Source: Escherichia coli
Lineage (GTDB): Bacteria > Pseudomonadota > Gammaproteobacteria > Enterobacterales > Enterobacteriaceae
DNA length: 64,000 nt
Strand: one strand, 5' to 3'
Assembly: GCF_016026235.1 (NCBI RefSeq)
Contig: NZ_CP065613.1
Positions 45,801 through 63,800 of this stretch are shown one piece after another. A program made the position numbers. Every line of letters starts with the position of its first letter. Position 1 is the stretch's first letter.

Positions 45801-48800
45801 ACGCTGTATCTGAACCAGCAGGCGGACTTCCGACGGATTCCGGTCCCCCTTTGAGGTGGTTTCCACCAGTGCCTGCACACCGAAGGTCAGGCGCAGACGA
45901 TCAATGTTTGCCGACGTGATGGTCCGGGTGATCGGCGTGTCGTATTTCACTTCCGTACCCAGCACCGCCTCGGAGCCGGAGGATTCAAATCCCTCCGGCG
46001 GTGTCTGCTCCTGCTCACCGGCCCGGAACACCACCGTGACGCCGGAGATGTTGGTATTCCCCTCAGTGTCCAGCACTGGCGTACTGTTCAGCAGCACGCT
46101 TTTTAATCCATCCACCGGACCGTCAACCGGCCCTTCGCTGATGGCATCGATCACACTCAGCAACTGCGTGGACTTCAGGTTGTCCTTCGCTTCGCGCGGA
46201 GTATGCCCCTTACTGCTGCCTTTACCCATTCCTCACGCTCCATAAACGACAAAACCGCCCGGAGGCGGTTTCACATAAAACGTTTTTCATCAGCGACCAA
46301 TCACCACAACCTGACCACCATCCCCTTCGTCTGCCGTGCGGATCTCCTGAGAGACCACCCGCGACCCCACGCGCATTTCACCGTACAGAACGGGCAGAAC
46401 ATTGCCCTGGGCAACCATGTTATCCAGTGAGGAGAAATAGGTGTTCTGTTTGCCGTTATCTGTACTTGCTGCCGTGGGCGTCCTGGCTTTCGGTGCCAGC
46501 ATCTGCGCCACTCCGCCCAGGATCATACTGGCCCCTGCCGCATACATGCCCGATACAGCCGCGGCACCCAGCCAGCCCACAGGGTTCCACCATGCCACCG
46601 CAATCAGCGCCACCCCCAGCACCACCTGAAACACACTGCCACTTTTAGCTCCCGCCAGACGCGGCACGATGTGGATCACGGCACCATTTGCCAGCGGCTC
46701 ATTAAGACGGGCAGACAATTCGGTTTCACCTGCATCACGCCCGGCAATGCGTACCTGGTACCAGCCGTCGCTCAGTTTCTGACGAAACGCCGGGATCTGC
46801 ATGGCCAGCGCCCGGATGGCTTCGGACCCCGTTTTCACTCGAAGGTCGATGCGGCGGCCAAATCGTTGTAAATCCCCGTAAAGGCAGATGCGTGCCATGC
46901 CCGGTGACGCCAGAGGGAGTGTGTGCGTCGCTGCCATTTGTCGGTGTACCTCTCTCGTTTGCTCAGTTGTTCAGGAATATGGTGCAGCAGCTCGCCGTCA
47001 CCACAGTAAATGGCGGCATGATTCGGCACCGATGAACCAAAACAGCACAGCAGCACATCGCCCGGCTGCGCCGCTGACAACGGCACCTGATACAGCCCTG
47101 TGGCCTCCAGATTATCCAGATAGAGATTCTGACCGTTACGCCACCAGTCATCCTCGCGATGAAAATCCGGCATCTCAATCCCCGCCAGATGGTAAGCATC
47201 CCGGAACAGCGTGTAACAGTCCGTCACCCCGTGCTCAAAGCGCCGCCCGGAAAGATGTGGCACACAGCGGAACTTGTGAATCGCCCCCCGGCAAACCAGC
47301 CACCACGGCAAATCACTCTGCACCTGCAGCCGCCGGTCGGTCTCACTCAGCCAGGGCAGACCACCGGGGTGGCTGTGGACCAGCGCCACAATCTCACCCT
47401 GCATCTCTGCCCGCAGCCAGTCCTCCGGCGACATCCGGAAATACTCCTCCGGCTCACCGGAGATATTCACGCAGGGAAAATATCTTTCCCCCTCCGGTGT
47501 TCTCACCACGAAGCCGCACGACTCCGCTGGCGCACATCGCCGGGCGTGCGCCAGAATCGCTGATTCTGTCTCTGTCATGGGATTCACTGCGAAAGTTTGT
47601 TAATGGAAAGGAAGCCGCCAAAGTTGCCGACGTTATTGCGAAACTTACAGCCGCTCAGGCATTTGCTGCATTTATCCTTCGTGATATCGGAGGTCGGCTG
47701 GTCATATTCATCCGCGACCGCCGGACCGTGATAACCGCACTCATCACCGCGATAGGTCCAGGTGCAGGTATTAGCCAGCATGATGCGCCCCGGAAAAACA
47801 GCGCCGTCCGTTTCCGTCGGCGTGGACAGTACAAAAGAGGCACTCACCGCGCTCAGTTCGCTGCACTGCTCGATGCGCCAGCGGCTGATCACCTCCTGCT
47901 CCGGATCGGCGTCACTGTTTCCGTTGACGAAGTTCACCGCATCCAGAAAACGGGCGTAAACCTTACGCCGGACCACCGTTCCTCCGACCAGACTCTGCAG
48001 GTCTTCCGCCATCCCGGTGACCATGCCGTGCAGGTTAGAAACCGTCAGTGTCGGACGGGCAGCACTGCCTTTGCCGTTCAGTTCAAATCCCGTCCCCTGA
48101 ATGGGATACGCCTGATACTGTCGCCTCTGCCAGGTGACCGGCTCACCTTTATCGTTCTGCTCATTACAGAAAAAATAACGTTCTCCACCGACCACTGTCA
48201 GATCGATTTCCCAGAGCACCACCTGGGCTGACTGAGTGAGGCGTGTCGTCTCATGATGTGTTTCCTGTGGAATATCCTGCATCAGAGACTCCTATGCCAC
48301 GACCTGTTCAAAATCTGCCGTTATGGTTACCCACAACGCCCCCACGCTTGCCGACCATTTACGACAAACCACCCTGATCGGCTTCCAGTCATAAGGTGGC
48401 GTCCACTGAAATGCGCGGACGCCACCGTGCCGTTCCAGAAAGGCTTTTAAAGATGGGTGTTCACCTTTACGAACACGTATCGTCACGCTGTAAGTCGACA
48501 ACTGGTTATTCAGTCCCGCCGCACGACGCTGTTCATAACCATCGCCCAGCTTCACTGTCACCACTTTCGGCTCTGATACCACATTCATATCCGGGCGCAC
48601 TTTCCAGTGAAACGTCTCCATTACCGGTATGCTCCACTTAACCGGCCACCATCACGGGCCTGCTGTTGCATAAAGTCCGCGGCCGCTTTTTTCCCGAGGT
48701 CATAAACCACCTTCAGGGCAGCCGGACCTATCTGCCCGTTCGTGCCATCGTTATTGATCTCAATGTTGTACTGCGGGGCAAACATCACCATGCCTGAACC

Positions 48801-60800: not shown

Positions 60801-63800
60801 CGGTAATGTCTCCAGCACCTGCACGACCGCTTTTGCCCAGATGGCAAACTCCCGTCTGACATCACTGGCCGGAATGAGTTGTGCCGTTTCCTGTTCGAAC
60901 TTAAGACGCTCACGTTCAGACTGATACCAGGCTTTGCGCTCATGCGCGTCCATTTCGCCTTCTGCAACCGGCGGTGGTAATGCCAGAAATGCCGACACAA
61001 TATCAACCACCCGATAAAGCTTGAGGTTGCTTTCATGCCCCCTGCAACGGGTAGATTTTGCAGCCTTGCCGCAGCAGTCTGGCGATGTACACCTGACAGT
61101 GCCGCCAGTTGACTGATATTCAGCGTCAGATTTTTTAACTCTCGATCCATACCCGCTCCAGAATGTTTTAAACATGCATCTTGCGAACAACTTTAGGCAA
61201 ACGGTGTTAGTGATGAACAAAAAACAATCAAAACCGACAGCACAAAAATAAAACCACTGTAATATCAATACATTACAGTAGTGGTGATGACGAATGAAAT
61301 TTCAAAAACTAGCCTTTTTCCGCGCCGCTCCCGCCCCGTGGCAGGCCACCCCACCGGGAGGACCCGTCAGCCTGACAGCCATGACGAACGTCTGATACAG
61401 CGCCCTGCATGAATGACATCGGGATAATCCAGAAAGGAATAGCATCGTACCCACAAGAATCAGTGTAAGTGTCCTGTTTCTTCCACCCCCGCACAGGACT
61501 GGCGAGCATGAGGGACAAACCCGCGAACCATAAACGCGGTAAAAACCCGGTGTGCATCGTTTTTGATTATTCCCGCACACTCGCGCAGAAGGAGTTCCCC
61601 GTCGGGCTACGGTCATGGTTAATGCGGGAATACAGCGACGATACAGCGCATGATGTGTCAGGCCTGAATACCTTTATCCGTTAAAAGGGATATCAGTTAA
61701 GTTATCCCGTGTAGGGTATAAGCCATTATCAAGCCCACCCGTAGATGGACTTTGTAATGGATAGCTGTTGCTCAGTTCTCGTAATGCTTTGATTTTTCCG
61801 ATAACGCAGTTTTGCGTTTGCCATCAGCACGCGATATCGAGAGTCAACTGCAGTTGCTCGCGCCAGTACTCGACATTTGCTTCAATAACCGGCTTATCCC
61901 ATCGCCAGCGAGCCATCTCTCTTGCCCCATTGCTGGCTTTTGATTTCCGGTCATCGCGAATGCGACATGCTTGCTCATATTTCTGCTGCTCAGTCAGTTC
62001 ACCGCGAAGCAGACTATCAATGTGCAGGTCGCACCATACGGAGAATTTCGGATCGCACCATCTTGCAAAGGCAACTGATAACTTTGGATGCTGCCATGTT
62101 CCGCCGCCCCTGTCCTTTCGTGCCTTGCTTGTTTTTACATACCCGGAATCACGGGTATGTAGAATTTTCGATGGTTCACCTGAATAAACCTCATCCAGAG
62201 CTCTAACGTATTCGAGAGTTTCAGCGTTGGACAACCAGTGATCCAGACGCTTCCCGAAACGTTTTGCAATATCAGTGGCATTAATCCAGCCATCAGTATT
62301 GAAGCGGATAGGTTCGCCTTTGTAATTCAGTGGAACGATATTCATAGCGTCTTACCTTTTAGAAAGATGAGCCTGTTCGCACAGAAAAGCCGCCCCGAGA
62401 TGGTCGCCACCATATACGGCAGTTCTCAGGCTCAGCTTTCTGAAAGACTCGGGATTGTTACGCGCTGCGATGCGCGGTTTACTGCGGACATATAAAAGCC
62501 CCGCAAGTGCGAGGCTCATTAAATTGACTTTGTGATTTGCAAAAAAATTATTTCAGGCATTGCGTCCTGATGTATTCCTGCAGGTAGTTAACCTGCGCGG
62601 TTATCCTGTCGATTCCACTTCGGAGACGGTAATAATTGAGTTCAGCATCTGCTGTAAGTCCTGGGCTTTCTCCATAGCCCATGCTGCTGGCTCCGGTCGT
62701 TGACTTTGCACAGGTGGCGGCGACTTGCAGGCGCTTACGACCAGCAGAAACATCAGCACGGAGACTTTCGATAGTCGCGTTAGCATCAGCAAGCTCCTTT
62801 GTGTATCTGGCGTCGAGTTCTGCTACATCACGTTGACGCTTCTGCATATCAGAGATGATGGATGTGGCCTTATCGCGCTGCTCTTTGTAGGTAATGGCGT
62901 TATCACGGTAATGATTAACAGCCCATGACAGGCAGACGATGATGCAGATAACCAGAGCGGAGATAATCGCGGTGACTCTGCTCATTGATCTATCCCCCAA
63001 CAGGCTAATGCGCTTTCCTGGTCACGACGAATAACCTGTCCATAGCAGTTATTTGAACGTATGCGGCAATCGCGCCCAACATCTTTTATCCACCAGCGAA
63101 TCGCCTCGCATGCGCCCTTACGATCACCGGCATTCAGCCGCTTATAAAACGTCGACGGGAAACACTTACCGGGGCCAATGTTATAGGGGCAAAATGACGC
63201 TATACCCGCTTTTTGTGGTTCGGTCAGTGGTACTTTAATATTGCGCTCCACCCATGCCAGCGCCTTATCACGTTCAATGGCGTTAACCTGGTCGCATTTT
63301 TCCTTCGACAGTTTCATACCGGGAAAAACGGGTTTACCATCCACCATCGTGGCACCCCGACAGATGGTCCAGATGCCGGAACCATCGCGGTATGCCGTAG
63401 TGTGGTTACCTTCTTTTTCATCCAGAAACTGGTCGAGAATATCAGGCGCAGGCGCACCGATAGCAATCAGTGCCAGAACGGCAGCCGACAGGCCATATCT
63501 GATTTTTACGTTCATGGATATTTATCAGGATTTATCGGCTTCAAATCCCCGGATATGTTAAATCTTACCTCGCCAGTGATGGGCACTGGCGGGAGGAGGA
63601 TGTCAATCTGATAAACACAGAGGTGACTACGGATTACACAAATCTACCAAAACAAACTTTTGCTGATTTAATCGCACTCAGGCAAGCAGTCGTAGCTCTA
63701 ATCAACTTGTTGCCGGAGAAGGAAAAGGAATTAGTTAAAGCGCTTCTTAACAGAACTGCCGCCGATTTTTCATCATATCCACTGACAGATGACCTTGCGG

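Follow-up and report, generated by a model that had tools for sequence, protein, structure and literature searches.

True decay is frequent among the prophages of Shigella and of enteroinvasive E. coli. For long-read assemblies, the Polypolish report (PMC8812927) describes homopolymer-length errors as the commonest residual errors and as surviving short-read polishing in repeats. The window analysed in this study (64,000 nucleotides of contig NZ_CP065613.1 from E. coli assembly GCF_016026235.1) carries a lambda-like prophage that adjoins an ipaH effector gene on an IS-bearing chromosome. Genes J, I, K, L, M, V, U and Z and those coding for portal, large terminase and tail fibre are intact in it; the late genes coding for the tape measure protein (H), the tail assembly chaperone (G), a protease/capsid fusion and the small terminase are out of frame (Table 1).

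Table 1. Late genes, shortened runs, slip site and duplicated block in the window.
Feature	Position	Strand	Basis or remark
Block present twice, nearly identical, in the sister genome	48400..61649	.	second copy L009, UGFA01000002.1 643354-664859
Tape measure gene H	48621..51661	-	phrog_24; Pfam TMP_2, TMP_4, Tape_meas_lam_C
C4 (G4 on coding strand) versus C5 in relatives, gene H	48818..48821	-	alignments and repair test
T open reading frame, intact	51633..51962	-	phrog_39, Pfam Phage_tail_T
Tail assembly chaperone gene G	51971..52356	-	phrog_42, Pfam Phage_TAC_2
Probable programmed -1 slip site G GAA AAG	51977..51983	-	two codons before the G stop codon
C4 versus C5 in relatives, gene G	52060..52063	-	alignments and repair test
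ClpP-like prohead protease/major capsid fusion gene	54838..56896	-	phrog_133; Pfam CLP_protease and Phage_capsid_4
C5 versus C6 in relatives, capsid half of fusion gene, second break	55559..55563	-	alignments
T4 (A4 on coding strand) versus T5 in relatives, protease half of fusion gene	56197..56200	-	alignments
Small terminase gene	60657..61150	-	DUF1441, phrog_141
C5 versus C6 in relatives, small terminase gene	61038..61042	-	alignments and repair test

Alignment to relatives showed that five changes are involved and that all of them are losses of a single base in homopolymers of true length five or six. Intact references for these sites were E. coli FDAARGOS_943 (L001), F9792 (L002) and a near-identical sister assembly (L010/L014/L020). 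The loss in H shifts the frame 55 codons before the gene end and leaves a product of 958 aa, in which 948 native residues are followed by 10 out of frame, versus 1013 aa; the one in G acts after about residue 99 (105 aa versus 128 aa), while in the small terminase gene the native frame ends with residue 38 (130 aa, 92 of them out of frame, versus 164 aa). The original prediction, that H, G, the capsid gene and the small terminase gene are each short of one base in a plus-strand C-run, agreed with the alignments both to relatives and to the sister. Its statement that all four frameshifts are of the same kind did not hold, given a fifth frameshift located in a T-run at 56197-56200. The one-base loss in the capsid gene was confirmed by the alignments, but the gene turned out to be a ClpP-protease/capsid fusion of 686 aa once repaired, broken twice and split into three reading frames in the window, the first break (after about residue 232) being the T-run site.

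When one base was re-added per site, the sister's proteins were recovered, with full identity for the small terminase (164 aa) and G (128 aa) and with one substitution for the repaired tape measure protein (1013 aa); restoration of all five bases gave intact proteins as in sister assembly GCA_900449985.1. Nonsense mutations, IS insertions and larger deletions were not found in the prophage late genes. The truncated small terminase and the truncated tape measure protein had no exact match among recorded proteins, and no match to the window's terminase allele appeared in a scan of GTDB species-representative genomes.

Comparison with the sister NCTC assembly (GCA_900449985.1) covered 35.9 kb (28108-64000), over which the two differ by the five deletions, by a pair of transitions and by a single IS element, and by nothing more. 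The sister copy displayed full-length runs at all five sites, its unique prophage genes (J, I, K, L and tail fibre) were without any difference from those of the window, and the exact J protein occurred, among recorded proteins, in this assembly alone. One of the substitutions lies in H at position 49167 (V832 in the window, A832 in the sister). The A found there is common to the window and to L017, the ipaH-adjoining copy of another assembly, indicating that the window's strain is distinct and not merely the sister assembled again.

All five deletions fall inside a block of about 13 kb (48.4-61.65 kb) that the sister genome carries twice, while no indel separates window and sister in the 22.6 kb of unique sequence over which they were compared. 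Over the block, the second sister copy (L009) displayed about 15 differences from the window, besides a 76-bp unaligned stretch (50579-50656), and the nearest copy-distinguishing positions lie 285-4283 bp away from each deletion site. A simple chimera between the window's block and an L009-type copy was rejected, since the window has the allele of the other sister copy (L010) at nine of the ten positions separating the two. L009 itself codes for a 239-aa protease fragment, which is no test of the window allele because of an extra A-run insertion upstream in that copy.

The placement of the losses in the block is more than chance. Among runs of at least five bases, 5 of 67 were shortened in the block versus 0 of 100 in the sister-compared unique sequence (Fisher p = 0.009); for C/G runs of at least six bases, the figures were 2/2 in the block versus 0/8 elsewhere in the window (p = 0.022). 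The suggestion that the few long C-runs present had been hit was thus borne out for both C6 runs of the block, but not for its C/G runs of true length five, only 2 of 14 of which were shortened, nor for the eight longer runs elsewhere, which were spared. Unique prophage sequence at 40.0-48.4 kb (tail fibre, J, I, K and L) also holds C5 and C6 runs, none of which was shortened. In the chromosomal backbone, 33.4 kb of which was aligned to E. coli CX21, no homopolymer indel was found, in line with the earlier observation that backbone genes are free of obvious frameshifts. Small indels relative to CX21 were restricted to intergenic or REP sequence, besides a deletion of about 81 bp that fuses copD to yebY.

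Our results make it likely that the five bases are missing through homopolymer under-calling left uncorrected in a repeat, and not through mutation. The window assembly would have been built with an error-prone consensus and incomplete polishing, and its own genome would also carry a second copy of the block, the duplication having been demonstrated in the sister genome. Where reads are unassignable to one block copy, error correction fails, and single-base under-calls in the consensus could persist because the block of about 13 kb would be there in at least two almost identical copies. Of the two sides left standing by the original prediction, decay or sequencing error, the latter is thereby favoured, yet in a narrower form, with losses confined to a block that is duplicated in the sister. 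A uniform homopolymer-biased platform error was rejected: C6, C8 and G6 runs kept their full length beyond the block and losses occur only inside it, which fits a failure of consensus or polishing in a repeat and not a uniform bias. Against the error reading counts the cleanness of the rest of the window, which indicates that the assembly is not generally poor. The T7 and T8 runs within the block are unchanged, in disagreement with a generic nanopore error profile, and this also counts against it. So do the distinctness of the strain from the sister, the occurrence of the short G allele in an otherwise clean contig and in other NCTC assemblies, and the frequency of true decay among Shigella and enteroinvasive E. 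coli prophages.

Short alleles at the five sites were also traced in other assemblies. They were rare at the two adequately sampled sites, being recorded in no more than about 0.3% of the complete genomes of E. coli (terminase C5 in 1/885, capsid C5 in 6/1821), and they tend to turn up together, in often visibly noisy assemblies. The C4 alleles of H and G occurred together in a CFSAN029787 copy bearing six frameshifted genes, and homopolymer deletions abound in CP026824.1, JAPDFU01 and JAALAC01. Strain CRE10 combined the C5 alleles of terminase and capsid, with no other frameshift flagged over 17 kb of retrieved surrounding sequence. The nearest relative displayed none of the five losses, and carriers of a single short allele belonged to different sequence backgrounds. 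Length variants seen at the terminase and capsid sites were losses only. Seven short draft contigs (L006, L011-L013 and L024-L026), of the kind that short-read assemblers yield, displayed the full-length run wherever they covered one of the five sites. The C4 allele of G was also encountered in an otherwise clean read-derived contig (L032, Logan ERR5961568) and in two further NCTC assemblies, and the related prophages that bear it differ in background (L028-L032, CP026824.1 being also L005); this allele is probably genuine in some strains.

The alternative is that the losses are genuine. Five independent and recent -1 slippage events could have struck the longest homopolymers of a cryptic prophage since its split from the sister, perhaps in a mutator episode, but we regard this as unlikely. 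The affected runs are indeed the longest C-runs of the block, indel rates are known to increase with homopolymer length (PMC8510543), and selection would shield the backbone genes. Moreover, the short G allele is present in the apparently accurate contig L032, and the strain does differ from its sister by the substitution shared with L017 and by one IS element. Yet indels make up five of the seven small differences between window and sister and substitutions only two, whereas mismatch-repair-defective E. coli accumulated 30,061 substitutions versus 5,324 indels (PMC8510543); even without mismatch repair such an excess is improbable (binomial p ~0.0012), and the substitutions that a neutral spectrum would have brought alongside the indels were not seen. 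Selection does not explain five losses, since a single one suffices to inactivate the prophage, and the unique prophage sequence at 40.0-48.4 kb, which has no evident host function, kept its C5 and C6 runs. About 99.7% or more of the complete E. coli genomes with the terminase and capsid runs have them at full length, so that these runs are not hypermutable. Inactivating lesions of several kinds were looked for across the prophage and only -1 homopolymer changes were found; none of the five is common by descent with the nearest relative, two substitutions apart in 35.9 kb. The decay reading is weakened by this intact, near-identical sister, by the lack of other lesion types and by the intactness of the unique genes.

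Slightly more doubtful still is an import of the short alleles, which would be real in decayed paralogous copies of the block and would have reached the window by short-tract gene conversion or through cross-copy read correction. The block is multi-copy, the short allele of G exists on several prophage backgrounds, and the T4 allele of the window is that of L009, the sister's second copy, the nearest copy-distinguishing positions being 360 and 549 bp off. However, the window displays the L010 allele at the other nine distinguishing positions, and L009 has full-length runs at the G, capsid and terminase sites. Since no single known copy has all five short alleles, such an import would require several short tracts, each acquired separately.

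A single episode of error-prone repair synthesis appears very improbable. Stress-induced Lac reversion in E. coli proceeds through -1 deletions in small mononucleotide repeats and needs recombination functions together with Pol IV. By analogy, the deletions would be real and date from one round of Pol IV-type break-repair synthesis between two inverted prophage copies, which would suit -1 deletions of which four out of five lie in G:C mononucleotide runs and which are clustered exactly in the tract with a homologous partner. This presupposes, however, that the deletions are real; the substitutions expected to accompany them are absent and the same alleles recur in unrelated assemblies beside obvious assembly noise. 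Phase variation was rejected because the runs count only five or six bases and hardly any length variation was seen at the two well-sampled sites among complete E. coli genomes.

The G deletion had also been left unseparated from the natural programmed frameshift between G and T in the original prediction. One half of phrog_32165 (290 positions) is matched by G and the other by T, whose frame is -1 with respect to intact G, and the slip site G GAA AAG was unchanged in 24 of 24 related loci; from this sequence arrangement we infer that slippage would operate there between the two genes. The deletion as the programmed frameshift itself was rejected: the slip site is intact and lies 77-80 nt downstream of it, and the deletion shifts the frame to +1, not to -1. 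Because the G reading frame now ends early, translation stops short of the slip site. Slip-prone sequence with a downstream -1 frame was found at none of the five deletion sites, only at 51977-51983.

If the missing bases are under-calls, as favoured here, the late operon with its head, tail and packaging genes is intact, inducibility rests on early genes beyond the window, and an annotation of five pseudogenes, or the verdict of a defective ipaH-linked prophage, is wrong. A practical rule would follow: frameshifts that are all -1, lie in the longest homopolymers, are found in multi-copy prophage blocks only and are absent from a near-identical sister should first be suspected as unpolished repeat errors. 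This bears on pseudogene counts in genomes of Shigella and enteroinvasive E. coli. Should the deletions be real, they would reveal an unusually indel-biased and locally confined mutation process; were break-repair responsible, morphogenesis genes would have been inactivated at once, leaving a footprint of break-induced Pol IV-type mutagenesis in a natural genome.

Among known systems, the cryptic lambdoid prophages of E. coli and Shigella resemble the window in that several late genes are out of frame in an ipaH-adjoining prophage on an IS-bearing chromosome. Decayed lambdoid prophages, however, display mixed lesions (IS elements, deletions, nonsense mutations and substitutions) inherited by descent, in contrast to the five -1 homopolymer changes encountered here. 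Contingency loci likewise turn a frame off by a one-base homopolymer change, but their runs count about seven bases or more and are frequently polymorphic in length. The programmed -1 frameshift between G and T of lambda-like phages has the same arrangement in the window, with T at -1 and the slip site near the G stop codon, while none of the C4-C6 and T4 runs in the terminase, fusion and H genes is known to act as a recoding signal. None of the five deletions falls on that slip site. The residual errors of long-read and hybrid assemblies (Wick and Holt, Polypolish, PMC8812927) differ from the present case in that the long A/T runs of the block are unaffected and the repeat was seen in the sister genome. 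They share with it single-base length changes in homopolymers with clean unique sequence around them, and the under-calling of the same sites in other visibly noisy assemblies is as expected of this type.

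Alignment of bases 48000-61500 with two intact relatives and with a near-identical NCTC assembly (the sister, GCA_900449985.1, contig UGFA01000002.1) showed the window to be exactly one base short at five homopolymers (see table). With one base restored per site, the small terminase (164 aa), the fusion protein (686 aa) and G (128 aa) became equal to the sister's proteins, and the tape measure reached 1013 aa, differing from its sister counterpart at one residue. The original prediction had placed C-run frameshifts in H, G, a capsid gene and the small terminase. All four sites were borne out by the alignments, but the T-run was overlooked and the presumed plain capsid gene is actually a protease/capsid fusion, broken twice. 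Gene identities were taken from RefSeq annotation of relatives, precomputed Pfam hits for identical proteins and PHROGs (phrog_141, small terminase; phrog_133, head protease/capsid; phrog_42, G; phrog_39, T; phrog_24, tape measure). The early region of the prophage, on which its inducibility depends under either reading, lies beyond base 64000, outside the window.

Features of the window and its five shortened homopolymers
Feature	Position	Strand	Remarks
E. coli-type chromosome	1 to ~37,000		prc, proQ, yebS/T, ptrB, edd, zwf, pyk, znuABC, ruvABC, yebC, aspS, yecD
IS1 copy	~8000-8767		99.7% identity to IS1A of E. coli CX21, 0 indels
DinI-like gene	37259-37507		
IpaH-type effector gene	38108-39859	plus	LRR plus NEL domains, E3 ligase
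Lambdoid prophage	~40 kb to window end	minus	window order: tail fibre, lom, J, I, K, L, M, tape measure H, T, G, major tail protein, head-tail joining genes, ClpP-protease/major-capsid fusion gene, portal, large terminase, DUF1441 small terminase, KilA-N gene, lysis genes
Run in tape measure H	48818-48821		C4, relatives C5
Run in G	52060-52063		C4, relatives C5
Run in capsid half of fusion gene	55559-55563		C5, relatives C6
Run in protease half of fusion gene	56197-56200		T4, relatives T5
Run in small terminase	61038-61042		C5, relatives C6

From 28108 to 64000, window and sister differed by these five deletions, two transitions (49167 and 62663) and one IS element at 62284, present in the sister and missing from the window, and by nothing else. 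The element, an IS3-family insertion of ~1.26 kb adjoining the KilA-N gene (window 62284-62287; 4796-6058 in L010, the matching sister copy), is the only structural difference in 35.9 kb. The window shares its A at 49167 with one further ipaH-adjoining copy (L017), and the odd base at 62663 belongs to the sister, which, judged from these bases, makes the two strains very close but distinct.

The backbone (bases 1 to ~37,000) displayed 97.5-99.3% identity to E. coli CX21, and no homopolymer indel was found over the 33.4 kb aligned to that genome. Its sole IS element, the IS1 copy, is intergenic between pphA and yebY. A deletion of ~81 bp between short direct repeats (ATCCAYCAMAAA), with a junction near 9294-9311, has taken away the copD (yebZ) 3' end together with the gap preceding yebY; against CX21, the single 381-aa ORF left at 8952-10097 has the appearance of an in-frame copD-yebY fusion. 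The DinI-like and IpaH-type genes adjoin the prophage at its tail-fibre end and represent cargo carried by the phage. Only 7 contigs of the collection searched contained the exact IpaH protein, every time in the same yecD/aspS context. This effector gene marks the chromosome as one of Shigella or enteroinvasive E. coli type.

The sister genome contains a second prophage (L009, UGFA01000002.1 643354-664859), ~500 kb off and in opposite orientation. It is almost identical to the window from about 48.4 to 61.65 kb, with ~15 differences and a 76-bp unaligned stretch (50579-50656); beyond this block identity drops to about 93-95%. All five deletions fall within the block (48.82-61.04 kb), whose duplication was seen in the sister genome only, and the copy-distinguishing positions nearest to each site lie 285-4283 bp off. 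Runs were counted by true length, as runs hit over runs present, in the block, in unique sequence compared with the sister and in backbone 1-28107, respectively. The counts were 2/2, 0/3 and 0/5 for C/G runs of 6 or more, 2/14, 0/19 and 0/8 for C/G runs of 5, 1/33, 0/52 and 0/74 for A/T runs of 5, and 0/18, 0/26 and 0/35 for A/T runs of 6 or more. Fisher tests set the block apart from unique sequence for all runs of at least 5 (p = 0.009); for C/G runs alone, it differed from the remainder of the window at lengths of at least 5 (p = 0.007) and from sequence elsewhere at lengths of at least 6 (p = 0.022).

The 76-bp stretch is located inside the tape measure gene, between flanks near-identical in window and L009. 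Most of the differences that set L009 apart from the window and the first copy are A/T-run insertions of +1 (window 54443, 54941, 55837, 56749, 61319), which break its fusion gene and lengthen its DUF2190 (Phage_cement_2) product; this is the opposite type of error or mutation to the window's -1, likewise within the duplicated block. Two 3.2-kb draft contigs (L025, DAEANY010000166.1; L026, ABEREG010000178.1) hold an intact tape measure gene alone and end at window positions of ~48.5 and 51.75 kb, which suggests that those genomes, too, have repeated but variable sequence on either side of it.

The five missing bases are probably residual assembly errors: the consensus of a multi-copy block would never have been properly corrected, so that homopolymer -1 errors remained. 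According to PMC8812927, the errors that most often remain in long-read assemblies concern homopolymer length, and in repeats they persist after short-read polishing; uncorrected homopolymers in repeats are a failure mode documented there. Two genuine points stand against a simple error story, namely that T7 and T8 runs in the block are unchanged and that a 12-kb, otherwise clean contig (L032, assembled from public run ERR5961568) carries the C4 allele of G. Together with two further NCTC assemblies, this contig encodes the identical 105-aa product, and some strains probably do have this allele.

Real recent slippage appears unlikely. Any account by real mutation has to accommodate five independent -1 events against only two substitutions; even under the totals of mismatch-repair-defective E. 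coli, the most indel-prone condition measured (30,061 substitutions, 5,324 indels; PMC8510543), at least 5 indels in 7 changes gives p ~0.0012. Five hits are required though one suffices to inactivate the prophage, the unique prophage DNA that spans tail fibre, J, I, K and L and serves no evident host function is unhit, and at the two well-sampled sites ~99.7% of other genomes have the run intact. Provided that the block consensus was left uncorrected, assembly error covers all four difficulties. Alternatively, the alleles would have come in from other copies resident in the genome, through gene conversion or cross-copy read assignment, which seems slightly less likely than slippage. Recombination-associated error-prone synthesis is very improbable as the source of the five deletions.

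The short alleles were also found in other assemblies. Among complete E. coli genomes carrying the site, terminase C5 occurred in 1/885, and capsid C5 in 6/1821 complete genomes. Strain CRE10 (L027, NZ_CP034404.1 953799-960082) has both, and no other frameshift flag was found within the 17 kb retrieved around them; in this unrelated complete genome the region is single-copy, and its fusion and DUF1441 genes are flagged as frameshifted. H C4 and G C4 occurred together in one prophage copy of CFSAN029787, whose genome has the region three times; six genes of that copy are frameshifted. The T4 allele occurred in L009 alone among the assemblies compared. Three carriers of short alleles were plainly noisy: CP026824.1 (>15 G/C-run deletions in 10 kb), JAPDFU01 (almost all genes broken) and JAALAC01 (deletions in runs as short as 2 bases). 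Seven short draft contigs (L006, L011-L013, L024-L026), which from their sizes and accession styles appear to derive from short reads, displayed full-length runs at all covered sites among the five. Recombination-associated error-prone synthesis is very improbable as the source of the five deletions.

The G deletion is not a natural G-T recoding event, since it lies 77-80 nt upstream of the slip-prone sequence and terminates translation ahead of it. In the intact gene, T occupies the -1 frame and G GAA AAG stands two codons ahead of the G stop (51977-51983), unchanged in 24/24 related loci; a single PHROG profile covers both proteins, with G matching one half and T the other. GGGAAAT follows directly past the G stop codon (51971-51990 region). 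G GAA AAG is the probable G-T slip site, and it differs from the lambda-type site, G GGA AAG.
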